Of a stretch of DNA of 64,000 nucleotides, positions 3,904-59,724 are shown one piece after another (the stretch's first letter is position 1; every line of letters starts with the position of its first letter). The DNA lies in assembly GCA_003152105.1 (NCBI GenBank), contig PLZJ01000002.1, positions 311,761 through 375,760 on the forward strand, in the 5' to 3' direction. Both the position numbers and the translations under genes were made by a program. The notes under the pieces were generated by a model. That model saw nothing but the letters and a program-made list of their open reading frames with translations, was not told the origin of the DNA and did no database searches. Origin of the DNA: Candidatus Levyibacteriota bacterium. Its GTDB lineage: Bacteria; Patescibacteriota; Microgenomatia; Levybacterales; UBA12049.

Positions 3904-4563
3904 TTATTGTATTTGGATGTTTTCTATTTTATCTCCTACTTGAATCTTGTTCACAACATCCATGCCTTGGGTTACAATTCCATAATTAGTATATTTACCA
4001 TCTAGCCAATCAGCATTTTGTTTAACTATAAAAAATTGGTCATCATTTTGATATTTCCCATCACCTAAGCTTGCTTGACCAAGTGATCCCACAACAAATG
4101 GTTTAGTATTAAATTCAACTGGCATGTTCGTATCTCCACCTGTGCCATCGCCCTTAGGGTCACCGCCTTGTATTACCCAGTCTTCAACTCTATGGAAAGT
4201 TAACCCATTATAGAAACCACTTAGTGATTTATTGATAAAGTTTACTACGGTATTTGGCGCATCTTGTTTGTCAAGTTGGATAACAATGATGCCTTTGCTT
4301 GTGGTAATTGTTGCAATGCCTTGTATGTCGTTTAATGTTAATTGTTTAGGAGTTGGTGAAGGGCTTGCTTGCTGTGATTGTAATTGAGATGGGTTTGAGT
4401 TAGTTTGAGTTGGAGATAAAAAGCTAATTCCCGGAGTTGGTGATGGAGTTAAAATACTCGAAAAATTGCTTGAAGAAGGAGAGCTATGATTGTTTTCTAC
4501 AAATATTATTCCAATTGCAAGTAATAATGCAATAAATAAAATGTAAAAAATATTTTTACTCAT
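3904..4563 (-). CDS. secreted cyclophilin-type peptidyl-prolyl cis-trans isomerase with an S/P/T/Q-rich linker
   Basis: Cyclophilin motifs FHRV..W.IQGGDP.GDGTGG ... FF. N-terminal hydrophobic signal/anchor followed by a low-complexity SPSPTP linker. Confidence 0.8.
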   Translation of the reverse strand: MSKNIFYILFIALLLAIGIIFVENNHSSPSSSNFSSILTPSPTPGISFLSPTQTNSNPSQLQSQQASPSPTPKQLTLNDIQGIATITTSKGIIVIQLDKQDAPNTVVNFINKSLSGFYNGLTFHRVEDWVIQGGDPKGDGTGGDTNMPVEFNTKPFVVGSLGQASLGDGKYQNDDQFFIVKQNADWLDGKYTNYGIVTQGMDVVNKIQVGDKIENIQIQ

Positions 4564-4568
4564 AGGTT

Positions 4569-5630
4569 ATGTTAAGTTATTTTACCAGTTTAGCCTTACA
4601 AGTCAAGAATAGATTCTCATGGTATAATAGCTTCATGTTTCAAACACTGCTCATACTTTTGTTACTGTGCATACCAACAATCCTTCTTATCTTACTTTAT
4701 AGAAAGATTTCCCAATTAAAGCAATCTGAGAACGATAAAACTTTATTTGAATGGCTCAAATCAATGCAGCAGTCAATGGATATTACTTCATCGTCAATGG
4801 TAAAAACGCTACAAGAGAATTCAAGGCAATTAAACGAAAGACTCGAAAAAGCTGCTGAAGCGATGTCGAACGTTGGAAAAGAAGTTGGTCAAATGAACGA
4901 AATTGGTAGAAACATGAGGGAACTTCAAGAATTTCTTAAAAGTCCAAAATTACGAGGCAATATAGGAGAGCAAGTGTTAAAAGATTTAATTTCTCAAATA
5001 TTTCCTAAAAACAGTTTCTATTTACAATATCAGTTTAAATCAGGTGAACGCGTAGATGCAGCCATAAAGACAGATGCCGGCATTTTATGTATTGACTCGA
5101 AATTTCCTATGGAAAACTTTCAAAAATTATCAAAATCAAAAAACGAACTAGAAAAAACTCAATATCAAAAAGAATTTGTCCGAGATATCAAAGTACACAT
5201 AGACTCAATTGCAAAAAAATATATTTTACCTATTGAAGGAACTATGGATTTTGCCCTTATGTATGTGCCTAGTGAATCAGTATATTATGAAATAATAAAT
5301 ATTTCTGAAATTATGGAATTCGCAAAACAAAAAAGAATTTATATAGTATCCCCAAGTACATTATATGCGCATCTACAAGTTATATTACTTTCTTTTGAAG
5401 GGAAAAAGATTGAACAACAATCTAAGGAAGTGTTTATCTTATTAAGAGCACTGCAAATTGATTACTCAAAAGTTAACGACTCCTTAGATATTATGGGTAA
5501 GCATTTAAGAAATGCTAATGAACAATTTACAAATGTTAAAGCAAATCATGCATCACTTGGTAGTAAGCTGAGTTCTATTCATCATCTGGAGTCAACTATT
5601 GAAAAAAAGGCAATAGATGAGAAAAAGTAA
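4569..5630 (+). CDS. rmuC: DNA recombination protein RmuC family (likely true start ATG 4635; N-terminal TM helix)
   Basis: N-terminal TM, coiled coil, then the RmuC C-terminal region (IDSKFPMENF..., MYVPSESVYYE). TGGTATAAT at 4619-4627 sits 7 nt before ATG 4635, which suggests a leaderless mRNA. Confidence 0.75.
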   Translation: MLSYFTSLALQVKNRFSWYNSFMFQTLLILLLLCIPTILLILLYRKISQLKQSENDKTLFEWLKSMQQSMDITSSSMVKTLQENSRQLNERLEKAAEAMSNVGKEVGQMNEIGRNMRELQEFLKSPKLRGNIGEQVLKDLISQIFPKNSFYLQYQFKSGERVDAAIKTDAGILCIDSKFPMENFQKLSKSKNELEKTQYQKEFVRDIKVHIDSIAKKYILPIEGTMDFALMYVPSESVYYEIINISEIMEFAKQKRIYIVSPSTLYAHLQVILLSFEGKKIEQQSKEVFILLRALQIDYSKVNDSLDIMGKHLRNANEQFTNVKANHASLGSKLSSIHHLESTIEKKAIDEKK

Positions 5631-6329
5631 TTAATATCCACTAAAAACTTCAATTTGAACATTGTCATTTTTCAAATCTAGTGTGCTTACTAACTCTTCC
5701 ATTGCAATAGTCATTTTAAGTGGTCCAACAATCATTATTTTATCAATTTGTTTAACATCGAGATATTTATTTATTAGATTTGTGGTGATTCTACCTCTTT
5801 CTCCGTCCCATGATTTGTCTTCTGATTGATTAGTAATTGTATAAATTATTTTTATATTACTATGTCGTTTAGCTATATTCTGCAGTACATCAAAATATAC
5901 AACTTCATTGCTCTCTGTAAAGGATACAAATAAATATAAATTATTAGATAGTTTTTTATTAGCAGCATAAGTTATCATGCTGTGGAATGGGGTAACTCCA
6001 ATTCCTCCAGCTAAGAATAACTGATTGGCTGCATTTGTATCTAATGTAAACTCTCCGAAGGGTCCTTTATAAGAAATTTTCTCATTTGCAGAAAGCTTAA
6101 AAAGCCTATTTTTAAATGGACTCTTATTATTTACTTTTGTAGTTATCGTAATATATTTTTTTTCACTAGGTGAGGAGCTAATTGTAAATGAGTAAGTTGG
6201 AAGTGTGATAGTCTTTTCCTTTAAATGTAGCGAAATATATTGACCAGGTTTATACAAAAAAAAACTTTCTCTTTTAAAATAAAACTCAAAAGTATCATGA
6301 GAAAGTTTAACCTTTTTTACAAATTGCAA
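5631..6329 (-). CDS. FNR-type oxidoreductase (FAD-binding plus NAD(P)-binding domains; PyrK / ferredoxin-reductase-like)
   Basis: PGQYISLHL ... TYSFTISS (R/PxYS-type FAD motif) and LAGGIGVTPFHSMI (NAD-binding glycine motif). Confidence 0.6.
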   Translation of the reverse strand: MQFVKKVKLSHDTFEFYFKRESFFLYKPGQYISLHLKEKTITLPTYSFTISSSPSEKKYITITTKVNNKSPFKNRLFKLSANEKISYKGPFGEFTLDTNAANQLFLAGGIGVTPFHSMITYAANKKLSNNLYLFVSFTESNEVVYFDVLQNIAKRHSNIKIIYTITNQSEDKSWDGERGRITTNLINKYLDVKQIDKIMIVGPLKMTIAMEELVSTLDLKNDNVQIEVFSGY

Positions 6330-6505
6330 ATATAAGTTATCAGTTTTAGTTTTAATAAATGATAGTATAACAAAGTTATCTTATCCAATAATGACTAATA
6401 TTACTTGTAGGGATGAATTAGAATATGTTACACTAGTTTACCAAGAATACGCTTCTCTAGAATGAGTTTATTCAAGATAAAGATACACATACAGCATGTT
6501 GTAAT

Positions 6506-9412
6506 ATGAATGAGGATAGTATTGTTTTAAATTCCGCGCAAATTAGTGCAATTACTCATGGTGAAGGACCATTACTTATCATAGCTGGAGCTGGGACCGG
6601 TAAGACTACTGTAATTACTGAAAGAATAAAATATTTAGTATTAGAGAAAAATATATTGCCAAAAAATATCTTGGCATTGACCTTTACTGAAAAATCAGCA
6701 GTAGAAATGACAGAGCGTATTGATAGCGTAATGCCGTACGGGTATACGCAAATGGCAATTTCCACATTCCATTCCTTTTGTGACCAAGTATTAAGAGCAG
6801 AAGCAATTCATATAGGTTTAAATCCAGATTATAGATTGGTTAGCGAGGCGGAATTAGTGTTATTTCTACAAAAAAACATAATTAAATTACAACTAGATTA
6901 CTTTATGCCACTTGGAAATCCTACCAAATTCTTGCAGAGCCTACTCCAGCACTTTAGTAGACTAAGAGACGAAGATATTTCGCCAAATGATTACTTGGAG
7001 TACGCTTCAAAAATTTCTAAAGAAAAAACTCTTGAAGTGGATGAGATAAGAAAGATACACGAATTGGCCAGAGCTTACGATGAGTTCGAAAAGTTGAAAA
7101 TTAAAGAAAGCATTATGGATTTTTCAAACTTGATATCTTCAACGCTACTTCTATTTAGAACAAGGAAAAACGTGCTTAAAAAATATCAAGAACTACATAC
7201 ATATATCTTAGTTGATGAATATCAAGATACGAACTACGCACAGAATCAACTTGCGTTGTTGCTTGCAGGAAAAAGAAAAAATATAACAGTGGTTGGAGAC
7301 GATGATCAGGCTATTTATAGATGGAGAGGGGCGGCTATAGCAAATATGCTAGCTTTTAGAAAAACATATCCAGAAGCTAAGGTAATATCATTAATTGAAA
7401 ACTATCGTAGTAGCAAAGAAATTCTTAATGCGGCTTATTCGTTAATTCAAAATAATAACCCAAATAGGTTAGAAGTGAGAGAAAATATCAATAAGAAACT
7501 AGTAGCGGCGAATAAACTAGCTGCTGAGAAGGTAACATTAATATTTGAAGAAAATAATGAAGACGAGGCAGATGCTGTAGCAAAGACTATATTAGACCTG
7601 GTGTCTAAAAAGAAATATTCATTTATAGATATTGCTCTATTAGTTCGCGCAAATGATCATGCTATTGCATTTACAAGATCTTTTGAAAGATTGGGAATAC
7701 CTTATCAATTTTTAGGTCCTACCCAGCTATTTCTGCAAGATGAAATAAGAGATTTGATAGCATATCTACAATTACTACACGATTTTGAAGATTCGATTGC
7801 CGTATATAGAGTATTAACGATGCCACAATTTTCAATATTACCAAAAGATATAGCCTTGCTGTTAAATTATGCTAAAAGAAATAATTATTCTCTGTTTGAA
7901 ACCTTAGAGCATATATCTGAACTCTCCTTAACGCAGTCGTCTAAGGATAAAATACAAGAATTATTGGATAATATTAAAAAGCATTTATCATTAGTTCCAA
8001 AAGAAACGGCGGGTCAAATATTATATAAATTTTTAGTATCAAGTGGATTATTACAATCTTTTGCTAGCCAAAGTTCTCAAGTCGATGAAGTGAAAGTCAA
8101 AAATATTGCTACCTTTTTTGATAAGTTAAAACATTTTGAAACTGAATTTAATGACGCTTCGGTTCATGGGGTTGTAAACTACATTTCTTTATTAGCAGAG
8201 TTGGGAGATAATACATCAACTGAAAATAATTTAGAGCAAAACATGGGAGTTTCAATTTTAACAGTCCATGCTAGTAAAGGATTAGAGTTTCCCGTTGTTT
8301 TTTTGGTTAATTTAGTATCAGAGCGATTTCCTACAAGGCAACGTAGTGAAACTATTCCAATTCCTCAAGAATTTATTAAAGAAGAATTACCTGAGGGGGA
8401 TTATCACTTACAAGAAGAACGCAGACTTTTTTATGTCGGGATGACAAGAGCAAAAAATAAATTATATTTAACTGGGGCAAAATACTATGGACAAGGTAAG
8501 CGTGAAAAAAAACTCTCACCGTATGTTTATGAAGTTTTAAGTAAGAGTGATATCGACGAGGCAATGTTAAAAAATGACAAAAATGATGATCAATTATCGC
8601 TTTTTAATTGGAGTAATATAAGTAGCAAAAATGAGTTGAATGTATCTCAGACTTATCAAAAGTTTCCGATAACATATTTATCATATTCACAAATACAAAC
8701 ATATGATATGTGCCCTTTGCATTATAAGTTGAAATACATATTAAAAATTCCTGTAATTAAATTATTTCCAGCTCCCAGTTTCGGAACTAGCATTCATGAG
8801 ACATTAAGGAAATTTTACCAAGCTGTTCTTGATGGGGAAGAAGGCAGTGTCGAACTAGCACTTTCAATACTTGAAAAGTCTTGGAGTCATCTTGGATATG
8901 AAAGTCGCGACCATGAAAAAAAAGCGTACGAAAGAGCAGTACATGTTATTAAACAATATGTAATAAATAACTTTGACGAGAATAATCTTCCTTTAAGTCT
9001 AGAAACACCCTTTATTTTTGGTGTTAAGGGATTGAAAATAGGTGGTCGTATCGATAGAGTTGATAAGACATCAGACGGGAAAATTGAAATTATTGATTAT
9101 AAGACAGGAAATAATATTCCAACACAAAGTGCGGTAGACAACAATTTACAACTAACAATTTACGCCTTAGCTGCAACAAAATTAAAAGATGCGCTTTTTA
9201 ATAAATCGTCAAGTGATATTGTATTAACGTTGCATTTCGTTGAACAAGACATAAAATTAACAACTACTAGAACGCAAACGGCGTTGGATGAAGCAGAAAA
9301 AATTCTCCAGGAAAAAGCAATTGAAATTGCAAAAAGTGATTTCCAGTGTTCCAAAAGCATATTTTGTAAATCATGTGAATATTCTTTACTCTGTTTTTCT
9401 CAAAGCACCTAA
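6506..9412 (+). CDS. single-polypeptide ATP-dependent helicase-nuclease: UvrD/PcrA-type SF1 helicase fused to a C-terminal PD-(D/E)xK Cas4/AddB-like nuclease with four Cys (likely Fe-S)
   Basis: N-terminal SAQISAI...AGAGTGKTTVITERI (Walker A, UvrD motif I), DEYQDTN (II), VGDDDQAIYRWRGA, HASKGLEFPVVF, YVGMTRAK (VI). C-terminal IDRVDK...IEIIDYKTG (nuclease motifs II-III) plus Cys at MCPLHYK and C-x6-C-x2-C-x5-C at the extreme C-terminus. Confidence 0.85.
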   Translation: MNEDSIVLNSAQISAITHGEGPLLIIAGAGTGKTTVITERIKYLVLEKNILPKNILALTFTEKSAVEMTERIDSVMPYGYTQMAISTFHSFCDQVLRAEAIHIGLNPDYRLVSEAELVLFLQKNIIKLQLDYFMPLGNPTKFLQSLLQHFSRLRDEDISPNDYLEYASKISKEKTLEVDEIRKIHELARAYDEFEKLKIKESIMDFSNLISSTLLLFRTRKNVLKKYQELHTYILVDEYQDTNYAQNQLALLLAGKRKNITVVGDDDQAIYRWRGAAIANMLAFRKTYPEAKVISLIENYRSSKEILNAAYSLIQNNNPNRLEVRENINKKLVAANKLAAEKVTLIFEENNEDEADAVAKTILDLVSKKKYSFIDIALLVRANDHAIAFTRSFERLGIPYQFLGPTQLFLQDEIRDLIAYLQLLHDFEDSIAVYRVLTMPQFSILPKDIALLLNYAKRNNYSLFETLEHISELSLTQSSKDKIQELLDNIKKHLSLVPKETAGQILYKFLVSSGLLQSFASQSSQVDEVKVKNIATFFDKLKHFETEFNDASVHGVVNYISLLAELGDNTSTENNLEQNMGVSILTVHASKGLEFPVVFLVNLVSERFPTRQRSETIPIPQEFIKEELPEGDYHLQEERRLFYVGMTRAKNKLYLTGAKYYGQGKREKKLSPYVYEVLSKSDIDEAMLKNDKNDDQLSLFNWSNISSKNELNVSQTYQKFPITYLSYSQIQTYDMCPLHYKLKYILKIPVIKLFPAPSFGTSIHETLRKFYQAVLDGEEGSVELALSILEKSWSHLGYESRDHEKKAYERAVHVIKQYVINNFDENNLPLSLETPFIFGVKGLKIGGRIDRVDKTSDGKIEIIDYKTGNNIPTQSAVDNNLQLTIYALAATKLKDALFNKSSSDIVLTLHFVEQDIKLTTTRTQTALDEAEKILQEKAIEIAKSDFQCSKSIFCKSCEYSLLCFSQST

Positions 9413-9413
9413 A

Positions 9414-9442
9414 TTGACTTATAGTTATTTGCATGTTATACT
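9414..9442 (+). promoter_or_regulatory. sigma70-type promoter for the RNase P RNA (TTGACT-17 nt-TATACT)
   Basis: TTGACT at 9414-9419, a 17-nt spacer, then TATACT at 9437-9442. The predicted transcript start (about 9450) coincides with the 5' strand of the RNase P P1 helix. Confidence 0.5.
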
Positions 9443-9450
9443 TATTTTGA

Positions 9451-9803
9451 TCCTAGGAGATAGTTTCGCTACGGTTAACTTCATGTTAATCGAGGAAAGT
9501 CCAGACAGGTGTAAGGCTAGGGATGGAGCAAACGCTCTGACTAGTAATAGCTGGTGTTTAAGTTCTTTACCCACATGTGGAACTTAGAACAGATTGTGAA
9601 TTGACACAATTTGAGAGCAACAGAGACGAGTGGGTGTGAAACGGGCAATCCTACCTACTGCAACCTCCGATTAGTACGTTATTATTTGCTTTACAAGAGT
9701 ACTAAGGTTCGAGGGCAACCGCTTAAAGGCGGTCAGGATGATATAAATAGCATCGTGAGATAGATTGCGATTAAAACAGAATCTGGCTTACTCATTTCCT
9801 AGG
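9451..9803 (+). ncRNA. rnpB: RNase P RNA, bacterial type A-like (about 350 nt)
   Basis: Universal P4 sequences are present: GAGGAAAGTCCAGAC (about 9482) and ACAGAATCTGGCTTA (about 9776). The CCAGA/TCTGG change from the E. coli CCGGG/CCCGG is compensatory. GCAACAGAGACGAG matches GCAACAGAGAGCAA of M1 RNA. The P1 helix pairs tcctaggagat (9451-) with atttcctagga (-9803) and is followed by a T-run. An upstream promoter is present. No ORF of 60 aa or more is credible here. Confidence 0.82.
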
Positions 9804-10874
9804 ATTTTTCTTATCATTGTCATTTACAATATCCAAAGAATATTCGAGAAGTATTCTGATAGTTGCAGCAATTGGAACTGCAAGAATTAATCCTACAACA
9901 CCAAACATGTGTCCTCCGGCAAGAACTGAAAAAAGTATTATTATAGATGGAAGTTTTGTTATTTTGCCCATTATTATTGGGGTAATAAAATAATCTTGTA
10001 ATTGTCTAACTAAAAAGTAAATTAATCCAACAACTATCACTCCTTGAATAGGAGCTAGTCCAAAATTATTATTTCCTGTAATAAGAATTACTAAAGCAGC
10101 AACTACACCAGCTGTAATTGGTCCAATAATAGGAACTATTTCTGCAAACCCTGAAAAAATTGAAAGAATAAGTGAAAATCTTTCTCCTAAAATCGAAAGA
10201 CATATAAACAATAAGCAAGATACAATAATAATTAATAATAGCTGACCTCTCAAGTATCCACCCATTACTGCATTTATTCTACGTATTAATATTTCTACAT
10301 CTACCTTATATTTATTAGGGATTTGATGAATAAATCTATCTGTAATTGCTCTTCCTTCTTTTAAGAAATAGAAGCCTGAAAATAGGAAAATAATGAAGCT
10401 TAATATATGTGTAAATATTTGTGGAAATAAGCTAAAAAGAGATGTCGAAGTAAGCAGTTTTGATTTTTGTATTGAATTCAATGCATCAAAAATAAATCCT
10501 TGCGCAAAGTCAGGGAGCGAATGTATTTGTATTTTCGTATGAATTACTAGATGTGTTATATAACCTCTAAGCTCCGAGGATTCTTCAATAGTGCGTTTTG
10601 TCAATATATAACTGGCAATAACTATTATTGCCATTATAATGATATATATTAACGCAACAGAAAGCGTACGTGGCATCCTAAGTTTATTTGATAGAAAGTT
10701 TACTAAGGGGTTAAATATATATGCAAATACCGCAGCTAGAACAAATGGAGTTAATATACCGCGAACTGAATAGAGGAATAAGAAAAGTATACATACTAGA
10801 ATAAAGAAGAATATAAACTTATAACGAATTGACATTGTTAAATTTATTATATCAGAGGCATGATATGCTTGCAC
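9792..10874 (-). CDS. AI-2E family (UPF0118 / PF01594-like) multi-pass membrane transporter
   Basis: Eight or more hydrophobic helices with ...LTPFVLAAVFAYIFNPLVNFL... The track start is a GTG (cac at 10872-10874). An internal ATG (MSIRYKF) is an alternative start. The 3' end abuts or overlaps the RNase P RNA 3' end. Confidence 0.7.
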   Translation of the reverse strand: MQAYHASDIINLTMSIRYKFIFFFILVCILFLFLYSVRGILTPFVLAAVFAYIFNPLVNFLSNKLRMPRTLSVALIYIIIMAIIVIASYILTKRTIEESSELRGYITHLVIHTKIQIHSLPDFAQGFIFDALNSIQKSKLLTSTSLFSLFPQIFTHILSFIIFLFSGFYFLKEGRAITDRFIHQIPNKYKVDVEILIRRINAVMGGYLRGQLLLIIIVSCLLFICLSILGERFSLILSIFSGFAEIVPIIGPITAGVVAALVILITGNNNFGLAPIQGVIVVGLIYFLVRQLQDYFITPIIMGKITKLPSIIILFSVLAGGHMFGVVGLILAVPIAATIRILLEYSLDIVNDNDKKNPRK

Positions 10875-10952: not shown

Positions 10953-11234
10953 TTAACGAACAGCTTTTTTAAGTGTTTTTCCGGGAGTAAAACCTGGTGC
11001 TTTTCTTGCTGCTATGTTCATTTTTTCTCCAGTTTTCGGATTTCTACCAACTCGTGATTGCCTTTTTCTAATACTAAATGTTCCAAATCCGGTAATAACA
11101 ACTTTTTCACCTCTTTTTAGTGAATCTCTTATCGTATTTAGCATAACTTGCATTGCATCTCTAGATGCCTTGTTGGTAAGATTGGCTTTTTTTGAAATTA
11201 CTTCTATTAAATCTTTTTTAGTCACACAATTCAC
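10953..11234 (-). CDS. hup: DNA-binding protein HU
   Basis: 93 aa. ...GEKVVITGFGTFSIRKRQSRVGRNPKTGEKMNIAARKAPGFTPGKTLK is the HU/IHF arm motif. Confidence 0.85.
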   Translation of the reverse strand: MNCVTKKDLIEVISKKANLTNKASRDAMQVMLNTIRDSLKRGEKVVITGFGTFSIRKRQSRVGRNPKTGEKMNIAARKAPGFTPGKTLKKAVR

Positions 11235-11320
11235 CTCCTTCCATAATGTAAGTTGAAATCGCCGTTTAGACTAACAATATAGGAAAAACGTATTATTGTC
11301 AATATGATCAACTATATCAG

Positions 11321-12580
11321 TTAAGAGGCGATAGAGCGGAATTCTCTTATTGCGGTAACTTTAACTTCACCAGGTACAATCAATGATTTATCGATTTCTT
11401 CTTTTATTTTTTGTGCAGTTATAACGGTTTGAGCATCGTCCAGTTTTCCAGCATTTATTATTACTCGAAGTTCTCGACCTGCCTCAAATGCATATGCGTC
11501 TTCAATTCCTTCATGTCTTTTCGCAATATCTTCCATTTGAGTAAGTCTTTTTGCATAATCTTCATAATCTTCATAGCGAGCCCCAGGTCTAGAACCGGAA
11601 ATAGCATCTCCGATATGTACGATTACGGATTCTATTGATGAAAATGGCTTATCTTCATGATGTTCTGCAACACAATTAATAATAGGTTCTGGTAGATTAT
11701 ATCTTTTAAGAAGCTCAACGCCAAGTTTAACATGAGAGCCTTCTCCTTCTACTACTTTTCCAATGTCATGTAGCATAGCGCCAAGTTTAACTACGTTTAC
11801 ATCAGCTCCTATTTCTTCTGCAATGTGTGCTGCTATTTTAGTAGCTTCTAGAGTATGTACGATTAAGTTTTGTCCATATGATGTTCTGAATTTAAATCTA
11901 CCGAGGACAGACATTAATTCGACAGGCAAATTATATACCCCAACTTCATGAGTTAATTTTTGGCCTTCTTCTATTAAAATTTTATCTACCTCTTCTTGTG
12001 TTTGCTTTACAATTTCTTCTATTCGAAATGGTTGAATACGGGTATCTTTCAATAATTTTTCTAAAGCACGTCTTGCAATTTCTCTTCTTACCTGGTCAAA
12101 GCTTGAGAGTCTAATTATTCCTTCTTCATCCAGGTCAACATCAACTCCAGTAGCCTGTTCAAAGGCACGAATATTTCTGCCTTCTTTCCCAATAATTCTG
12201 CCTTTCATTTCTTCGTCTGGAACTTTTACTACAGAAACAGTATATTCTGGGACATAACTTATTGCTCCGTGTCTCATGCTTTCAACTAAAATTTCCCTAG
12301 CCTTTTTTTCTGACGTTTGCTTTGCCTCTTCTTCAGATTCTTTAATTAATTTAGCTACAGCATGTCTTTGTTGATTTTCTACTTCTGTTAGGAGTTCTTG
12401 CTTTGCCTCTTCTTCAGTAAGACTCGTAATATTTTGTAGTTTTTTACGATATTCGTCTCGCTTTTTTTCGATTTCTAATTTTTCTTTTTCTAATCGATCT
12501 CGATCTATTTCTACTTTTTCTTGTTTTTCAAGTAGTCGTTTTTCGAGTGCAATTAGATCTGATTGTGTAGTATCTGCCAT
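11321..12580 (-). CDS. rny: ribonuclease Y (KH plus HD domains), short form that appears to lack the usual N-terminal membrane anchor
   Basis: GRIIGKEGRNIRAFEQATGVDV (KH), then HTLEATKIAAHIAEEIGADVNVVKLGAMLHDIGK...HHE (HD). The coiled-coil N-terminus begins at MADTTQ with no hydrophobic segment. Confidence 0.85.
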   Translation of the reverse strand: MADTTQSDLIALEKRLLEKQEKVEIDRDRLEKEKLEIEKKRDEYRKKLQNITSLTEEEAKQELLTEVENQQRHAVAKLIKESEEEAKQTSEKKAREILVESMRHGAISYVPEYTVSVVKVPDEEMKGRIIGKEGRNIRAFEQATGVDVDLDEEGIIRLSSFDQVRREIARRALEKLLKDTRIQPFRIEEIVKQTQEEVDKILIEEGQKLTHEVGVYNLPVELMSVLGRFKFRTSYGQNLIVHTLEATKIAAHIAEEIGADVNVVKLGAMLHDIGKVVEGEGSHVKLGVELLKRYNLPEPIINCVAEHHEDKPFSSIESVIVHIGDAISGSRPGARYEDYEDYAKRLTQMEDIAKRHEGIEDAYAFEAGRELRVIINAGKLDDAQTVITAQKIKEEIDKSLIVPGEVKVTAIREFRSIAS

Positions 12581-12719
12581 AAATTGCAGACAATAGCATG
12601 AAGTTGCTTAATAATTTATTTCACTGTGGTTTTAGTTGCAATATGTATCATAATTCACTAAAACGAACAACTACTATTGTCCTTGGACGTATTATACTAC
12701 ACATTCTGTTTTCTGGTCA

Positions 12720-13103
12720 ATGTTCCTAAAATTTTGTATACTAATAAAGATGTTTATTATTTTTATTAATTGGTTGATATCAGCTCTTGTTATTATTGCT
12801 GCATCATATTTATTACCAGGGGTACATGTTCAGTCATTTTTAACTGCGCTGGTAGTTGCAATAGTGCTTGGCATATTGAATGCAGTTATAAAACCAATAT
12901 TATTTTTACTCACGTTGCCTCTTACTATAATAACTCTTGGATTATTCACTTTTATTTTAAACGCATTTATGATTCTTCTAGCAAGTAAAATAGTGCCTGG
13001 ATTTCATGTTGATAATTTTTGGTGGGCATTGTTATTCGGTATAATCTTGTCTATTTTTAACTCTTTTCTTCAGAACTCCAAAAAAGAGCAAAAGCTTAAG
13101 TAA
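12720..13103 (+). CDS. DUF360 / phage-holin-4-like small membrane protein (4 TM)
   Basis: Entirely hydrophobic 127-aa ORF with WLISALVIIAASYLLPGVHV and ...KIVPGFHVDNFWWALLFGIIL, typical of the YvlD/DUF360 family. Confidence 0.5.
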   Translation: MFLKFCILIKMFIIFINWLISALVIIAASYLLPGVHVQSFLTALVVAIVLGILNAVIKPILFLLTLPLTIITLGLFTFILNAFMILLASKIVPGFHVDNFWWALLFGIILSIFNSFLQNSKKEQKLK

Positions 13104-13120
13104 TATTTATTTTTAATGAT

Positions 13121-13588
13121 TTATGTATAATGCGCCAACACTTTTTTAATCGTTTCCCAATTGAAGCCTCTTCTTCCGAGTTGTCCAACAAGTTTTTCAT
13201 ACAATTGATCTCTCGATAAGTTTTTATAACTTGTAATTTTTTTCTCTACAATTTTTTTAGCTAAATCCTCGTCTGAAATATATGTTTCTTGATCACCAAG
13301 AACATCTTCTATAATTTCCTTTGAGATACCTTTTTTGGAAAGCTCAATGCTAATGAGTCTTTTACTTTTTGGTTTGCTATAAACTCTACTTGAAAACCAA
13401 GCCTTTGCAAACATTTTATCATCAATTAGACGTTCATTTTTTAAAAGTTCTATAACCAAAGCTATATCAGTATCATTTGCTTTTTTTCTTACTAAGTAAT
13501 CTTTTATTTCTTTTTCTGATCGCTGTCTGTATGAAAGAAATTTTATGGTTTTCGCATGTAGAGAAGCAACAGATATCGAATGAGTCAT
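13121..13588 (-). CDS. recX: recombination regulator RecX
   Basis: Immediately downstream of recA on the same strand. Three-repeat pattern: LSYRQRSEKEIKDYL / IDDKMFAKAWFSSR / ISIELSKKGIS / LVGQLGRRGF, paralleling E. coli RecX. Confidence 0.8.
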   Translation of the reverse strand: MTHSISVASLHAKTIKFLSYRQRSEKEIKDYLVRKKANDTDIALVIELLKNERLIDDKMFAKAWFSSRVYSKPKSKRLISIELSKKGISKEIIEDVLGDQETYISDEDLAKKIVEKKITSYKNLSRDQLYEKLVGQLGRRGFNWETIKKVLAHYT

Positions 13589-13600
13589 TTAGGAGTATTA

Positions 13601-14701
13601 TTACACATTTACTTCATCAATGGTATCTTTGGTATCTTCAATACCAACAGTTACTGAAGTTGGACGTGATTGAGTAAGTTCTTTAATTTTATCTACTATT
13701 TCTTTTGTTTGAGTAGGATTATTTTTAAGCCATTCCTTGGTATTTTCTTTTCCTTGCCCGATGACTTCATCGTTATATCTAAAGAATGCTCCGGCTTTTT
13801 TAATAACATTCATTTCTACTCCAACATCTAAAACTCCACCTTCTCGTGAAATACCATCTGTAGTCATAACATCAAATTCTGCAATTCTAAACGGCACTGC
13901 TACTTTATTTTTTACAATTTTGGCTCTGTGTCTTGATCCAATTGGTTTATCGCCATCTTTGAGAGATTCAATTTTTCTTACATCAATACGTACAGATGCA
14001 TAAAACTTAAGAGCAAGTCCTCCAGGAGTAGTTTCGGGATTGCCAAACATTATCCCTATTTTTTGTCGTAATTGATTGGTAAAGATAACTACTGTTTTTG
14101 ATTTAGAAATAACACCTGTTAACTTTCTTAGAGCTTGAGACATTAATCTGGCTTGTAATCCAATCATAGCATCTCCCATCTCTCCTTCTATTTCTGCTCT
14201 TGGAACAAGCGCGGCAACTGAATCAATAACAAGAACATCAATTCCTCCAGAACGAATTAATGATTCTGCGATTTCTAATGCTTGTTCACCTGTATCGGGT
14301 TGTGAGATTAGCAATTCTTCAAGTTTTATTCCAATTTTTTCCGCCCATAATGGATCAAGTGCGTGTTCTGCGTCTATAAAAGCTGCAACTCCTCCATGTT
14401 TCTGTGCTTGTGCTATTACAGATAATGAAAGTGTAGTTTTTCCTGATGCTTCGGGTCCATAAATTTCAATGATTCTTCCTCTTGGCAATCCTCCTACTCC
14501 TAATGCTAAATCAACAGGGAGAGAGCCTGTTGAAATAGTTGAAATATCTAACTTATTGCCAATTTCACCAAAACGCATTATGGCACCACGACCATACTGC
14601 TTTTCGATTTGTTCCATAGCCAGTCGAACTGCTTCTAGTTTTGGGGATAAGTGTCCATTTGTTGGTGGAGTTGCTTTTGTAGATCCTGCCTGTTTAGCCA
14701 T
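13601..14701 (-). CDS. recA: recombinase RecA
   Basis: Canonical RecA: [17 protein letters not shown] (Walker A), [23 protein letters not shown]. Confidence 0.95.
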
Positions 14702-51690: not shown

Positions 51691-53220
51691 ATGAGAACTA
51701 TGTTTTGGGCAGATACTATAGCAATTGAACTGAAAAAAAGAAAGCTTCCTTTGGAGTGGGTTGATGATATGAAAACCCCTTCTGGAAAGATACATGTTGG
51801 CGCACTCCGAGGTGTGGTTGTCCACGACTTGGTCTATAAAGCGTTGCGAGATAGTGGGGTTAAGGCAACGTATACATATATTTTTGATGATCATGATCCA
51901 ATGGATGGTCTGCCTGTTTATTTACCAAAGGAATACGAAAAATATTTAGGCCTACCTCTTTTTAAAATTCCCTCTCCGGAAAAAGGATATAAAAGTTATG
52001 CAGAGTATTATGCAAAGGATTTTGAGAAGGTTTTTAACGATATAGGTTGTTTCCCAGAAATTAGTTGGGCAAGTCAGATGTATCTAAGTGGAAAGATGAA
52101 CGGCGTCATAAAAGAATGCTTAGATGCTGCCACAAAGATTAGAGAAATTTACGAAGACATTTATAAAAAAGAGGTAAGTAAAACTTGGTATCCTTTTAAA
52201 ATTTGTTGTCCGAAATGTGGCAAAATTGCAACTACCGATATTGACAATTGGAATGGGGAAACAGTACATGTAATATGTAGAGATTTAACATGGACAAAGG
52301 GATGTGGTTTTGAAGGCAACCTTACTCCGTTTAGCAACAAAAATCATTTCGCAGGAAAATTGCCTTGGAAAGTGGAATGGGCAGCAAAATGGAAAGTGAT
52401 AGGAGTTACCGTTGAAGGTGCAGGAAAAGATCATATGAGTAAAGGTGGATCACATGATCTTGCTTCGCTCATTTCAGAAAAAGTTCTAGCATATCCAGTT
52501 CCTTATCCAGTTTTTTACGAATGGTTTTTGATTGGAGGACGGAAAATGTCAACTTCAAAAGGAGTTGGAGTGACTGCTTCGGAAATGACAGAGATATTGC
52601 CACCAGAATTATTAAGATTTTTAATGGTTAAAACTAAAAAAGAACAACAGATTAATTTTGATCCGTCTGGTGAAACTATCCCATCATTATTTGACGCGTA
52701 CCAAGAGGCAGCAGAAGCATATTTTACAAAATCTAATTCAGATCTTGCTCGTATTTTTGAATTGTCCCAAGTTAACGATATTAAAAAACCACCAATGGTT
52801 CGTTTCTCACAACTTGCACAATGGGTGCAGTCTCCCAATATGCATGAAATGATTAAGAAAGAGAAAGCAGATGAATGGATACCTTATGTCAAAATATGGC
52901 TTGAACGTTTTGCGCCTGATGAAGTCAAATTTTCAGTGTTAGATAAGTCTCCAGATGTAAAAGTAAAATTAACCGAAGGACAAATACAATTCTTAAAAAA
53001 AATTCTTCTTGAATTGGAACATAAATGGGAACCGGAGGAATTACAGCAAATGCTCTTTGATTGGGCAAAAGAAAATAATATTTCTTCAAAAGATGGATTT
53101 AGTGCAATATATCTTTCATTAATTGGAAAAAGTTATGGCCCAAAAGCTGGTTGGTTGCTTTTAGAAAACAGTACAGTGGCAAAAAGTCGTTTTAAGGAAA
53201 TAATTGATATATCTGAATAA
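51691..53220 (+). CDS. lysK: lysine--tRNA ligase, class I (archaeal/LysK type)
   Basis: MFWADTIA...TPSGKIHVGALRG (HIGH-like), a zinc knuckle ICCPKCGK, KMSTSKG (KMSKS). About 510 aa. Collinear with class I LysRS (HWADY...TPSG.VHVGN.R). Confidence 0.8.
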   Translation: MRTMFWADTIAIELKKRKLPLEWVDDMKTPSGKIHVGALRGVVVHDLVYKALRDSGVKATYTYIFDDHDPMDGLPVYLPKEYEKYLGLPLFKIPSPEKGYKSYAEYYAKDFEKVFNDIGCFPEISWASQMYLSGKMNGVIKECLDAATKIREIYEDIYKKEVSKTWYPFKICCPKCGKIATTDIDNWNGETVHVICRDLTWTKGCGFEGNLTPFSNKNHFAGKLPWKVEWAAKWKVIGVTVEGAGKDHMSKGGSHDLASLISEKVLAYPVPYPVFYEWFLIGGRKMSTSKGVGVTASEMTEILPPELLRFLMVKTKKEQQINFDPSGETIPSLFDAYQEAAEAYFTKSNSDLARIFELSQVNDIKKPPMVRFSQLAQWVQSPNMHEMIKKEKADEWIPYVKIWLERFAPDEVKFSVLDKSPDVKVKLTEGQIQFLKKILLELEHKWEPEELQQMLFDWAKENNISSKDGFSAIYLSLIGKSYGPKAGWLLLENSTVAKSRFKEIIDISE

Positions 53221-57385: not shown

Positions 57386-58069
57386 CTAAATGTGCTTGCC
57401 AAGAATCAGGGGCTCATAGCTTCGAGCGTCTTGTAGCAACTGTTCACGTGCAATACCGGCCTTAGCGCGAATTTTCAAACCCTGCACTAGGTCAACGAGC
57501 GCACGACTTCGCACCTTGGCAGAAGGTGTTCGAGTCAGACGACCTGCCTTTATCTCCTTTTCGAAACGTATCGCGAAAATATCAGCAGATTCATTGAGGG
57601 CTTTTGCGACAAATATACGTATCTCCGTTACACGCTCCGACTGTCCCAGCGTAGCGGAAAGCATCAGGCAACCGGCACGACCCTCACTCGAAGCGGTGTT
57701 GACAGTAGCCTCACAAAGGGCCGCTACAGCCTTATGGATATCCGGCTCCGCTCGAAAATCTGCCAGCATGGCTGCTCCATACGTTATTGCATAGCGCTCA
57801 ACCGCCTTGAGTAGTAGGGTTGACTTGTTTCCGAAGGCTCGGTAAATCGCGGGTTTGGTGACATTCACAGCCCGTGCGATCCGATTTACGTCAACTCCTT
57901 CATACCCATGTTCCCAAAACATCTCAACGGCACGATCGAGGGCTTCGTCAGGGATAAAGCTTTTTGGACGTCCTGGTGTTCGGTTTGTTGTATTAGTTAC
58001 CATAGAGTATGAAATTGGTCCTTGCATTACACTTTTTATTATTATACTCTTGAGTATGTAATACATCAA
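57386..58069 (-). CDS. TetR/AcrR family transcriptional regulator (GC-rich, foreign-looking composition)
   Basis: An N-terminal HTH ...LDRAVEMFWEHGYEGVDVNRIARAVNVTKPAIYRAFGNKSTLL... and an all-alpha C-terminal domain. Codon usage is GC3-rich, unlike the flanking genes. Confidence 0.8.
   Translation of the reverse strand: MMYYILKSIIIKSVMQGPISYSMVTNTTNRTPGRPKSFIPDEALDRAVEMFWEHGYEGVDVNRIARAVNVTKPAIYRAFGNKSTLLLKAVERYAITYGAAMLADFRAEPDIHKAVAALCEATVNTASSEGRAGCLMLSATLGQSERVTEIRIFVAKALNESADIFAIRFEKEIKAGRLTRTPSAKVRSRALVDLVQGLKIRAKAGIAREQLLQDARSYEPLILGKHI
58044..58057. promoter_or_regulatory. palindrome ATACTC-TT-GAGTAT overlapping a TATACT -10-like box in the 23-bp tetR/SDR divergent junction. Candidate TetR operator
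   Basis: A 6-2-6 perfect inverted repeat inside the AT-rich divergent promoter region between the tetR start (58069) and the SDR start (58093). Confidence 0.3.
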
Positions 58070-58092
58070 GTCAGTTAAACAAAGGAGACTAT

Positions 58093-59097
58093 ATGGATAC
58101 GATCAAAGAAAAAACAAGTCGACCCTCACTTTCTACAATGAAGAAATCTATCAAACATTCGATCGCACTCATCACCGGTGCCACCTCAGGGGTCGGTTAT
58201 GCGGCTGGCCGCATGCTCGCCATCGAGGGCTACCGTCAGATCATCGTTACCGGACGCAGTCTGGCCCAGATTCAAGAAACGGCCGCTCAGCTCGCGGCTG
58301 AGACCAAGATACAGGTCTTCACGCCGCTGGAACTGGAGCTGGATAGTGTATCCAGCGTTCAGTCCTTCCTCGCCGAGCACGTCAAGCGAGGTCAGCCGGT
58401 CGACTTCCTACTGCTCAATGCAGGAATCATGGGACGTAAGGAACTCAAGCTCACTGCGGCAGGAATAGAGATGTCTTCGGCTCCGCTCATCGGCCATCAT
58501 CAACTGACTGTCGGGTTGCTCCGCGCCAAGCTGTTGAGCCCGAATGCTCGAATTGTTATTGCCAGCTCGGAAGCTGCCCGAGGTGATGTACCCCTGTTCA
58601 GCTACACCGATGTAGCGGCCTTCGCGGCCAAATACTTCCAGGGTGACCGAACCGCTGCTGTGGAAGCCTTGTTGCATAGCGGACCGAATGTAAAATATCA
58701 GCCCAACCGGGCGTTCGCAGATGCGAAACTAATCGGTACTTTGTGGGTAGCTGCACTGGCTCGCCGGCTGCCCTCCGGCATGGCGATATATGCCGTTTCG
58801 CCTGGTGCCGCGCCTGCCACCAATGCGGTGCGAAACGCAGGTCTCCTTACGAGATTGGTGCTGATTCCACTGACGAAGCTTATCCCCGGCATGTCTCATA
58901 CTCCTGAGACCGCGGCCCGTCGGTATCTCAATGCATCGGAATTCGGAACCGACGTTTCGGGTCAATTCTTCGCATCGCCGCCCAAGAAGTTAACCGGCCC
59001 AATCGAGGCAATGCGCCAACCACACTTTCACGATCGAGCCAACCAGGAAGCCGCGTGGCAGGCCGTCGTCAAGGTTACGGGCGTCGATTTGTCTTAA
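58093..59097 (+). CDS. short-chain dehydrogenase/reductase (SDR) family oxidoreductase (GC-rich)
   Basis: ...IALITGATSGVGYAAGRML... (TGxxxGxG), ...LLLNAGIM... (NAG), and AAGGAG Shine-Dalgarno before ATG 58093. Divergent from the TetR gene. Confidence 0.8.
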   Translation: MDTIKEKTSRPSLSTMKKSIKHSIALITGATSGVGYAAGRMLAIEGYRQIIVTGRSLAQIQETAAQLAAETKIQVFTPLELELDSVSSVQSFLAEHVKRGQPVDFLLLNAGIMGRKELKLTAAGIEMSSAPLIGHHQLTVGLLRAKLLSPNARIVIASSEAARGDVPLFSYTDVAAFAAKYFQGDRTAAVEALLHSGPNVKYQPNRAFADAKLIGTLWVAALARRLPSGMAIYAVSPGAAPATNAVRNAGLLTRLVLIPLTKLIPGMSHTPETAARRYLNASEFGTDVSGQFFASPPKKLTGPIEAMRQPHFHDRANQEAAWQAVVKVTGVDLS

Positions 59098-59466
59098 CCA
59101 GCATCCTTGAGAGCGGTGTTCTGAAATTCTGAAATTAAATCACTGGTTTCTTTACGTATCCCAGCTTGTTGCTGTCTATTTTGCTCTATAGTTTACCCAA
59201 GTGGGCTTAATTAGTTGTGTTGAAACTAATGATCCAATTGGCGGCAAATTTTTGACGAGCTTTTCAATTAGCTAGGACACTCAAGTTCAGTATTATATAC
59301 TATAAGACTGTTAATGAGCCTGTAAGTCATGACTTATCAGTGTCTCATTTGTCTCACTAAGCCTGTATAAGAGACATCGCTATAATGATAATATGGGTTT
59401 AGACCGCTATACTCAGGGATTGCGGATTCGGCCGAAGCTATTTGGTACCTATTTAAATGACAGTTC

Positions 59467-59492
59467 AAAAAATGTCATTGGCCTCAATTAGC
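59467..59492 (+). repeat. copy 2 of the secA-terminus direct repeat (aaaaaatgtcattggcctcaattagc)
   Basis: See copy 1. It lies about 370 bp after the SDR stop and just before an AT-rich spacer. Confidence 0.7.
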
Positions 59493-59724
59493 CTAACTTT
59501 ACTTTTATACAATTATTGCCTTAATTACTATTTATGATTTTTTCCAAAAGAAAAAACCACCCTTTATTATTATCCGCTTACGCGGTCCCAAGAAGGGAAG
59601 GATGGTTTAGATATTCAATTGTAGATTTGTGCAGCCGAAGCTGGATTGATAACGGGATCATCCGTCTTGGTCGTCGAATTGACGCTCAAGCCCCATGGAG
59701 ACCATGAGTTTATGTGATATTCAG

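Follow-up and report, generated by a model that had tools for sequence, protein, structure and literature searches.

A single-chain UvrD-type helicase with a putative Fe-S nuclease domain and conserved rmuC linkage: a candidate DNA-end-processing enzyme of Patescibacteria

How do the CPR/Patescibacteria, whose genomes are tiny, process broken DNA for RecA? The subject is essentially undescribed: our literature search found nothing on it, nor anything on Patescibacteria together with RmuC, RecBCD or AddAB. The question is raised by a gene in a 64,000-nucleotide stretch of DNA of a Levybacteria genome (hereafter the window), whose product was read in a first-pass annotation as a UvrD-family helicase fused to a Cas4/AddB-type Fe-S nuclease, encoded beside rmuC and perhaps the minimal end-processing enzyme of the lineage. 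The product is identical to protein P0001, which is encoded on a 1.14-1.15 Mb scaffold. The gene and the parts of its motor are:

6506..9412, + strand, helicase-nuclease gene, 968 aa plus stop, ATG start (ORF list and translation)
6527..7372, + strand, UvrD-helicase N-terminal domain, UvrD/REP (PF00580), aa 8-289 (Pfam, 4.5e-72)
6584-6607, + strand, Walker A motif AGAGTGKT, aa 27-34 (sequence reading)
7205-7234, + strand, motif II ILVDEYQDTN, with DEYQD at aa 237-241 (sequence reading)
7289-7333, + strand, helicase motif III VVGDDDQAIYRWRGA (sequence reading)
7385..8479, + strand, UvrD_C, UvrD-like helicase C-terminal domain (PF13361), aa 294-658 (Pfam, 5.9e-56)
8258-8308, + strand, motif V LTVHASKGLEF, within UvrD_C
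8414-8470, + strand, motif VI VGMTRAK, within UvrD_C
8480..8677, + strand, linker between motor and nuclease, aa 659-724 (low conservation in the homolog alignment)

Translation, Pfam and sequence reading agree with the first-pass annotation that a single 968-aa ORF carries all the SF1 motifs. The complete set is readable, including motifs Q (Q12), I, Ia, II, III, IV (NYRS), V and VI, the helicase string VGDDDQAIYRWRGA occupies aa 262-276 of the 968-aa protein, and the key residues of these motifs show no variation in an alignment of 119 homologs. Both UvrD domains and motifs Q to VI place the protein in the SF1A UvrD/PcrA/Rep superfamily. Among proteins of known structure, PcrA (1pjr) is matched over aa 8-659 with an E-value of 1.2e-98, and the values for the motor and its relatives in the PDB run from 1e-98 for PcrA and 8e-80 for UvrD through 9e-43 for AdnB and 3e-28 for AddA to 4.5e-11 for AdnA and 8e-8 for RecB. 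PcrA is also the top Foldseek match (8.5e-39), while the full-length Foldseek matches also include AddA, AddB, AdnA and AdnB. Judged by its motifs, the motor is of the PcrA/UvrD-like SF1A type and apparently active, with all ATPase and translocase motifs kept. In the linker, residues 693-718 (nt 8582-8659) are predicted by AlphaFold2 to be disordered (pLDDT < 50), and the full-length AlphaFold2 model has a pTM of 0.58, so that it does not fix where the nuclease sits against the motor.

The second half of the question concerns the C-terminal part of the protein, in which the following features are found:

8678..9394, + strand, PDDEXK_1 domain (Cas4/AdnA/AddB-type PD-(D/E)xK nuclease), aa 725-963 (Pfam, 2e-37)
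8711..8713, + strand, C736 in MCPLHYK, candidate N-terminal Fe-S ligand (alignment)
8795..8797, + strand, H764, candidate metal-binding His of a RecB-type active site (invariant across the family)
9044..9109, + strand, nuclease motifs II/III GRIDRVDKTSDGKIEIIDYKTG, with D850, D864 and K866 (AdnA alignment)
9149..9163, + strand, QxxxY motif with Q882 and Y886 (invariant; opposite QLAMY of AdnA in the alignment)
9347..9394, + strand, C-terminal cysteine cluster CSKSIFCKSCEYSLLC, with C948, C954, C957 and C963 (CX2CX5C formed by C954/C957/C963)

The strings IDRVDK, IEIIDYKTG, MCPLHYK and CSKSIFCKSCEYSLLC, on which the nuclease had been recognized, are all present. The motif II/III segment GRIDRVDKTSDGKIEIIDYKTG lines up with GRLDRLE...VVDLKTG of AdnA, including the position of AdnA D934, and the RecB-type catalytic residues H764, E833, D850, D864, K866, Q882 and Y886 are constant in 19 diverse family members. 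From what is known of the RecB family, H764 would bind metal. The earlier count of four cysteines, one in MCPLHYK and three at the extreme C-terminus, is right for the set that is invariant in the wider family (C736, C954, C957 and C963, which follow the pattern C-Xn-C-X2-C-X5-C), but the C-terminal string itself holds four cysteines rather than three, which makes five conserved cysteines in total. The additional one, C948, is limited to the closest clade and occurs in 9 of 50 full-length family representatives, 45 of which possess CX2CX5C; the family profile places this CxxCx5C on CANCPVRSSC of AdnA. C736 does not vary in 120 close homologs or in the 19 diverse members. Fold comparison likewise places the domain in the Fe-S nuclease fold with AdnA as its closest structural relative, and the earlier assignment to Cas4/AddB-type Fe-S PD-(D/E)xK nucleases therefore survives both alignment and fold comparison in its catalytic residues and Cys ligands. 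The domain is not Cas4 sensu stricto: it scores 22.4 with PF01930 (cut-off, 22.7) and 26.5 with TIGR00372 (cut-off, 65), and no cas genes are found in the annotated neighbourhood. It belongs to the Fe-S-bearing Cas4/AdnA/AddB/DNA2 class and is a putative iron-sulfur-binding nuclease.

The combination of the two halves is not the rarity that the first-pass annotation took it for. The helicase-nuclease has more than 8000 homologs and its nuclease domain defines a family of 5739 clusters at 50% identity (E<=1e-3), while AdnA has an equal domain order. A UvrD helicase with C-terminal PF12705 is found in all of the best 120 of the more than 8000 homologs and in about 50 diverse representatives. In view of the domain E-values and the number of homologs, the architecture is not due to chance. 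UvrD-Cas4-like fusions were described as the largest and a monophyletic branch of pfam12705, as stand-alone genes in many genomes and, in the tree, as 'Cas4-UvrD' leaves from candidate division CPR2 and Parcubacteria (Hudaiberdiev et al., 2017; PMC5704561). As described in that study, these fusions share the layout seen in the window, with a UvrD-type SF1 helicase in front and a Cas4-like PDDEXK_1 domain with its Cys set at the C-terminus (Hudaiberdiev et al., 2017). By its architecture, the helicase-nuclease belongs to this large family. The architecture has been known since 2017, and the new result is the linkage to rmuC. On the biochemistry of UvrD-Cas4 fusions, our literature search gave nothing beyond the 2017 study.

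What, then, do the neighbouring genes suggest? Those that bear on the question are:

4569..5630, + strand, rmuC (PF02646, 9.8e-54)
5631..6329, - strand, FAD/NAD(P)-binding oxidoreductase (FNR-like), 232 aa (PF00175 and PF00970)
10953..14701, - strand, recombination/nucleoid block from HU to RecA (Pfam and called genes)
10953-11234, - strand, HU (Pfam)
11321-12580, - strand, RNase Y (Pfam)
12720-13103, + strand, holin-family gene, inside the HU-RecA block
13121-13588, - strand, RecX (Pfam)
13601-14701, - strand, RecA (Pfam)

The encoded RmuC consists of an N-terminal transmembrane helix, a coiled coil and the RmuC PD-(D/E)xK domain. rmuC is indeed nearby and on the same strand as the helicase-nuclease gene, but the two are not immediate neighbours, as had been stated, since the oxidoreductase gene lies antisense between them; an equal insertion is found in 21 related loci. 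A scan of positions 4300-9900 for promoter and terminator signals gave counts no higher than those in shuffled sequence. The HU-RecA block was correctly placed close by, and the compact recombination neighbourhood that it had suggested is real in the window and conserved in related loci.

With a 7-sequence nuclease-domain alignment, we retrieved related loci, 75 of which, spanning Levy-, Woese-, Gottesman-, Roizman-, Ames- and Beckwithbacteria, were scored for rmuC. In 64 of them rmuC lies upstream and on the same strand as the helicase-nuclease gene; on a complete Woesebacteria chromosome the gap between the two is 21 nt. In a Gracilibacteria locus (L085) the order is reversed, with rmuC immediately downstream after a gap of 8 nt, and the adjacency therefore survives a change of gene order. 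Metagenomes scanned with a Gracilibacteria homolog as query yielded mainly generic UvrD helicases, recovered via the motif II pattern, and about 20 usable full-length members, three of which have rmuC upstream, at a distance of about 0.65 kb (L103) or about 4.5 kb (L094 and L108). The linkage is missing from most of the more distant family members sampled and is largely restricted to Microgenomates, which could make it in part a matter of inherited synteny. Beyond rmuC, Levybacteria loci also show linkage of the helicase-nuclease gene with recA, recX, rny and hup, and a separate Patescibacteria lineage has recA-recX-rny-ymdB-hup-helicase-nuclease in one direction. Across the Microgenomates classes sampled, the gene sits in a stable core synteny (rpoBC, S12/S7, recA and ribosomal proteins), and in the distant non-CPR members examined its neighbours are also housekeeping genes. 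The sections of Hudaiberdiev et al. (2017) drawn on here stress defence contexts, in contrast to the core housekeeping synteny of the Patescibacteria members, and contain no mention of the rmuC neighbour or of the linkage to recA, recX, rny and hup in these members.

Known helicase-nuclease machines are built differently, as the first-pass annotation rightly pointed out for AddAB: their Fe-S nuclease belongs to a subunit other than the lead motor, namely AddB in AddAB and AdnA in AdnAB. In AddAB, the Fe-S nuclease is carried by AddB with an inactive helicase-like domain, whereas AddA is the active motor and has a nuclease without Fe-S; the helicase-nuclease unites an active-looking motor and a putative Fe-S nuclease in one chain. 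AdnA has the same domain order and the nuclease most like that of the helicase-nuclease, but AdnA functions only in the heterodimer that it forms with AdnB, the lead motor encoded next to adnA, and the helicase part of our protein is far nearer to PcrA, UvrD and AdnB than to AdnA. Compared domain by domain, the protein appears in effect to be an AdnB/PcrA-like motor carrying an AdnA-like nuclease. DNA2 and Bad differ in having an N-terminal nuclease and an SF1B (5'->3') helicase, while the helicase-nuclease starts with an SF1A motor of the UvrD type. PcrA, UvrD and Rep, to which aa 8-659 are closest in both sequence and structure (about 30% identity, all motifs), have no nuclease domain.

We favour, with moderate confidence, the reading that the helicase-nuclease is a housekeeping enzyme of recombinational DNA-end processing, and four other readings have to be weighed against it. 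The protein could be one subunit of an AddAB/AdnAB-type heterodimer, with the gene for the other subunit at a distant place in the genome, as its domain order, which matches those of AdnA, AdnB and AddA, its AdnA-like nuclease and the full-length Foldseek matches to AddA, AddB, AdnA and AdnB might suggest. The known pairs addA-addB and adnA-adnB are, however, adjacent genes, and the helicase-nuclease is a single gene: no second helicase-nuclease gene is found within ±8 kb of it in the window, and no adnA/addB-like partner within ±8 kb in 83 loci or within ±5-6 kb in 27 loci. The two adjacent genes for UvrD-like motors with RecB-like nucleases that characterize AdnAB are not seen, the only neighbouring paralogs in related loci being plain helicases without a nuclease, and there is no recC or recD among the annotated genes of the window. 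The scores are also far under the equivalog cut-offs for AddA (186.7 vs 707.65), AddB of the alpha type (33.1 vs 486.5) and RecB (TIGR00609, 126.7 vs 696), and the ATPase motifs are fully conserved on the chain with the putative Fe-S nuclease, unlike those of AddB. A heterodimer with a distantly encoded partner is therefore improbable. Somewhat easier to entertain, but still doubtful, is that the protein is the general PcrA/UvrD-type repair and replication helicase of the lineage with a nuclease add-on, rather than an enzyme that resects double-strand breaks; excision repair, removal of RecA filaments, replication-transcription conflicts and processing of stalled forks would then be its jobs. 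The motor has its nearest relatives in PcrA, UvrD and Rep, and database labels read PcrA or 'ATP-dependent helicase', yet the NCBIfam equivalog cut-offs are missed by a wide margin (PcrA, 477 vs 911.2 bits; UvrD, 345.6 vs 1144.45; Rep, 400.7 vs 951.45). Furthermore, in Woesebacteria-type genomes a plain UvrD/PcrA paralog of about 610 aa is encoded separately, at a distance of only 2-5 kb, which argues that, at least in these genomes, the helicase-nuclease is an additional, specialised paralog. When the 607-aa Woesebacteria paralog was used as query, the best 120 matches listed were all Woesebacteria-like.

A part in phage defence, which the first-pass annotation had kept in view, finds no support in the genomic context. 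The protein would then be an anti-phage or anti-plasmid nuclease-helicase, perhaps acting with RmuC in a Shield-like manner or as an accessory of restriction-modification. Many UvrD-Cas4 fusions are reported to have genes for Type III restriction-modification or Dcm/Vsr as neighbours (Hudaiberdiev et al., 2017; PMC5704561), and the Shield defence system makes use of RmuC domains, for which DNA degradation in vitro is reported (PMC10270631). PADLOC models for GajB and DRT-associated proteins match the helicase as well, but these are generic UvrD-helicase matches without partner genes, and the vicinity is free of GajA, reverse-transcriptase, restriction-modification and other defence genes. With no cognate partner and housekeeping genes as neighbours, the locus does not qualify as Gabija or another defence-helicase system. 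The stable core synteny in Microgenomates is the reverse of what defence genes show, namely a patchy distribution on islands, and the housekeeping neighbours of the distant non-CPR members point the same way, which makes a defence role very unlikely. The fourth reading is that the enzyme, with membrane-anchored RmuC, degrades or processes DNA at the membrane, for nucleotide scavenging or on imported DNA, in auxotrophic episymbionts. CPR bacteria depend on external nucleotides, and RmuC has both an N-terminal transmembrane helix and the status of a conserved neighbour. This reading is pure inference; in the loci examined no competence or uptake genes are tied to rmuC and the helicase-nuclease gene, and recA, recX and hup as linked genes speak for chromosomal recombination. 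We regard it as the least probable of the four.

For the reading that we favour, recombinational DNA-end processing, we propose the following mechanism. Like PcrA, UvrD and AdnB, the motor would move 3'->5' along one strand of a DNA end or fork. The putative Fe-S nuclease would cut the displaced 5'-ended strand and help to hold the strands apart, by analogy with AdnA, AddB and DNA2, each of which acts on the 5' strand. The resulting 3' tail would be the product needed by RecA. Processing may take place within one chain, or by a homodimer that mimics the division of labour between AdnA and AdnB. In RecB and AddA, however, a C-terminal nuclease tethered to an active motor cuts the 3' strand, and the single-chain geometry could therefore favour the strand opposite to the 5' strand proposed here. 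This mechanism is inferential as regards strand choice, oligomeric state and Fe-S binding alike. Membrane-anchored RmuC, the conserved operon neighbour in this lineage, probably acts in the same pathway, in which it may create ends or be a second nuclease.

A bolder version, which we advance only tentatively and consider rather unlikely, is that RmuC and the helicase-nuclease form a one-motor, two-nuclease module that replaces AddAB, RecBCD and AdnAB in feeding RecA in Patescibacteria, chiefly Microgenomates, and that the enzyme, working alone or as a homodimer, might resemble an ancestor of the heterodimeric AddAB and AdnAB machines. If this is true, the long-enigmatic RmuC gains a concrete partner and a pathway. 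The suggestion of a minimal end-processing enzyme of the lineage is plausible but unproven. The helicase-nuclease is nevertheless a strong candidate for the break processing that feeds RecA in CPR/Patescibacteria, and, with an apparently active SF1A motor joined directly to a putative Fe-S nuclease, it makes a useful test case. Since the architecture is already in the literature, our finding refines annotation and opens no new category; its most useful by-product is the conserved pairing with rmuC, which makes a joint function testable.

Inteins, which are typical of replication and repair proteins, are located at helicase motif III in several homologs. Homologs of 1200-1330 aa, which were considered as possible RmuC-helicase-nuclease fusions, are not such fusions, as Pfam attributes them to inteins at this motif.

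The open reading frame claimed by the first-pass annotation at 6506-9412 (plus strand) is real, with 968 codons and an ATG start in the ORF list and translation, and it encodes a UvrD-type helicase followed by a Cas4/AddB-type nuclease of the PD-(D/E)xK fold class. Its Pfam domains, and the helicase motifs read from the sequence, are as follows.

Domains and helicase motifs of the helicase-nuclease
aa 8-289, UvrD/REP N-terminal helicase domain (E 4.5e-72)
aa 294-658, UvrD C-terminal domain (E 5.9e-56)
aa 725-963, PDDEXK_1 nuclease domain (E 2e-37)
Q12, SF1 motif Q
aa 27-34, Walker A, AGAGTGKT
aa 237-241, DEYQD
aa 262-276, helicase motif III, VVGDDDQAIYRWRGA
aa 299-302, NYRS
aa 586-595, TVHASKGLEF
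aa 644-650, VGMTRAK

The set of SF1 motifs is complete, as had been claimed, and every sequence string quoted in that annotation is found in the protein. The motor looks active, judging from ATPase and translocase residues that are invariant across 119 aligned homologs. The full-length predicted model (pLDDT 80.9, pTM 0.58) has a disordered linker at residues 693-718. In several family members an intein (PF14890/Hint) sits at helicase motif III, around residue 270 of the 968-aa protein, and lengthens them by 200-390 aa (proteins P0003, P0126, P0202 and P0205; loci L058, about 5555-6636, L062, about 5630-6711, and L109).

Ranked by sequence search against solved structures, the helicase domain matches PcrA (E 1.2e-98), D. 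radiodurans UvrD (E 8e-80), M. tuberculosis UvrD1 (E 1.1e-72), Rep (E 2.1e-72), AdnB (E 8.6e-43), AddA (E 2.7e-28), the AdnA motor (E 4.5e-11) and RecB (E 8e-8), and Foldseek with the full-length model is consistent with this ranking. None of the NCBIfam equivalog cut-offs, including those for PcrA, Rep, UvrD, AddA, AddB, RecB and Cas4, is reached. The comparison values for the nuclease domain are 20.1 with the AdnA nuclease (234 residues aligned), 18.5 with ACE1, an Argonaute-associated Cas4-family enzyme, 16.2 with DNA2, 12.7 with Cas4, 10.6 with AddA, 10.0 with AddB (237 residues aligned), 9.6 with RecB and 6.9 with the AdnB nuclease. In AdnAB, AdnB is the tracking motor, while AdnA bears the iron-sulfur cluster and touches the unwound 5' strand (PMC8789073). 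Compared with these studied machines, the helicase-nuclease joins an active-looking motor of PcrA/AdnB type to an Fe-S-type nuclease like those of AdnA and AddB.

The catalytic D/E-x-K residues, whose loss on alignment would have spoken against the first-pass reading, are kept. Across 19 diverse members (30-43% identity), C736, H764, E833, D850, D864, K866, Q882, Y886, C954, C957 and C963 are invariant. The alignment of the family profile with AdnA of M. smegmatis runs from the His motif via GRLDRLE, VVDLKTG and QLAMY, and the profile's CxxCx5C lies opposite the C-terminal CANCPVRSSC of AdnA. The strings quoted for the cysteine set are present, but the count of three at the C terminus was mistaken: CSKSIFCKSCEYSLLC carries four, so the nuclease domain has five cysteines (C736, C948, C954, C957 and C963), all invariant among the 120 closest homologs. 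CX2CX5C occurs in 45 of 50 full-length family representatives. The fifth cysteine, C948 (window 9347-9349), six residues before CX2CX5C, occurs in just 9 of the 50, and most of the wider family lacks it; it may serve as an alternative ligand or be sensitive to redox state.

The gene lies in a housekeeping and recombination-linked context. It is preceded in the window by rpoC, rpsL and rpsG, a cyclophilin gene (minus strand), and the following features.

Features immediately upstream of the helicase-nuclease
4569-5630, plus strand, rmuC
5631-6329, minus strand, FNR-like FAD/NAD oxidoreductase, antisense between rmuC and the helicase-nuclease

Contrary to the reported adjacency, the oxidoreductase places rmuC one gene away. 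Downstream, the minus strand carries genes for an AI-2E transporter, HU, RNase Y, RecX and RecA, in that order, with a plus-strand gene for a holin-family protein between RNase Y and RecX. This agrees with the closeness claimed for recA/recX, RNase Y and HU. Ribosomal-protein operons come next beyond RecA. The holin-family protein (PF04020; 12720-13103), encoded opposite both RNase Y and RecX, has four transmembrane segments. In the RmuC of the window, an N-terminal transmembrane helix is accompanied by a coiled coil, and the D...D-x-K motif is intact.

Two further Levybacteria genomes, including the complete chromosome CP066685.1, have rmuC directly before the gene and in its orientation, and the transporter-HU-RNase Y-RecX-RecA block follows the gene as in the window. 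When the window proteins were compared with 83 loci by tblastn and the 75 loci with a complete, evaluable gene were sorted by rmuC position, 64 had rmuC upstream in the same orientation, either within 300 nt (20 loci), beyond an antisense oxidoreductase (21 loci) or beyond other short inserts (23 loci); rmuC was not found in 11 and was on the opposite strand in none of the 75. Because the oxidoreductase arrangement recurs in 21 loci, the insertion itself is conserved in a subclade. In a complete chromosome of Woesebacteria, 21 nt separate rmuC from the gene. A Gracilibacteria locus has the helicase-nuclease 8 nt ahead of rmuC, and since the two remain neighbours in reversed order, their adjacency has been kept through rearrangement. 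A further Patescibacteria lineage has the gene after recA-recX-rny-ymdB-hup, all on one strand and without rmuC, and rmuC is absent from the loci of three non-CPR or distant members, whose context is housekeeping. Among about 20 more distant full-length members from metagenomes, rmuC is upstream in three (about 0.65 kb in L103; about 4.5 kb in L094 and L108). Given this mixed presence, the link is strong in Microgenomates and recurs elsewhere, but does not hold for the family as a whole. The conserved rmuC pairing is the sole result beyond the literature found, where our search returned no link between RmuC and Patescibacteria. RmuC domains of the Shield defence system have non-specific nuclease activity in vitro, and housekeeping RmuC is mechanistically undefined (PMC10270631).

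The protein itself is conserved. A scaffold of 1.14-1.15 Mb encodes an identical copy. The best 120 homologs (55-59% identity, 939-1172 aa) have an identical Pfam architecture and, where labelled, are from Candidatus Levybacteria or Patescibacteria and named 'ATP-dependent helicase' or 'PcrA'. The nuclease domain alone, searched against 1.84 billion cluster representatives, matched 5739 clusters at E<=1e-3 (1765 at the stricter E<=1e-10), the complete matches being mostly ~940-1000 aa with the nuclease C-terminal. With each GTDB species represented by one genome, a scan gave 532 relatives, the best 80 of which are nearly all Patescibacteria (Levy-, Woese-, Gottesman-, Roizman-, Ames- and Beckwithbacteria); remoter members include Gracilibacteria and, outside the CPR, Candidatus Edwardsbacteria. 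According to Hudaiberdiev et al. (2017; PMC5704561), the fusion of a Cas4-like nuclease with a UvrD-like helicase is the largest branch of pfam12705, monophyletic for both domains and present in many bacteria and mesophilic archaea, either stand-alone or in loci for Type III restriction-modification or Dcm/Vsr. The 'Cas4-UvrD' leaves of their tree include candidate division CPR2 and Parcubacteria. Our literature search turned up no biochemical work on any of its members. The first-pass observation is confirmed and its interpretation supported in part. The protein is a new member of a known, biochemically uncharacterised family and does not represent a new type of enzyme. Two proteins of odd architecture from the search of cluster representatives, P0121 (1297 aa) and P0127 (1245 aa), have five tandem PDDEXK_1 (Cas4-like) domains without a helicase. 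Many MAGs with a locus plainly of Patescibacteria type (L006, L009, L012, L015 and others) are titled 'uncultured Gammaproteobacteria bacterium', which suggests a placeholder or an incorrect taxonomic label in the records.

In contrast to adnA-adnB and addA-addB, no second helicase-nuclease gene was detected within +-8 kb in the 83 tblastn loci or within +-5-6 kb in 27 further metagenome loci. In many Woesebacteria-type loci, a plain UvrD/PcrA paralog of ~610 aa that lacks a nuclease is encoded on the other strand, 2-5 kb downstream, which makes the helicase-nuclease an additional, specialised paralog there. The plain paralog lies at 11137-12960 (minus strand) in L053 and at equivalent places in about 25 such loci, with FemAB-family genes between the two.

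We propose that the helicase-nuclease binds an Fe-S cluster, that it works by itself or as a homodimer, and that RmuC belongs to its pathway. Its motor would translocate 3'->5' and, by analogy with AdnA, AddB and DNA2, its nuclease would act on the 5' strand, leaving a 3' tail for RecA. Strand choice is the main uncertainty of this mechanism, because in RecB and AddA the nuclease tethered to the active motor cleaves the 3' strand. An anti-phage role, raised in the first-pass annotation, is unlikely because the gene lies in stable core synteny. The similarities reported by PADLOC are only generic.

Elsewhere in the window, positions 58000-60000 have a GC content of 0.49 (0.32-0.36 in the rest), with genes for a short-chain dehydrogenase (58093-59097, plus strand) and a Band 7/SPFH protein (59725-60645, minus strand), and may be a recent horizontal acquisition. 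The lysyl-tRNA synthetase at 51691-53220 (plus strand) is of class I type (PF01921); the usual bacterial enzyme is class II.
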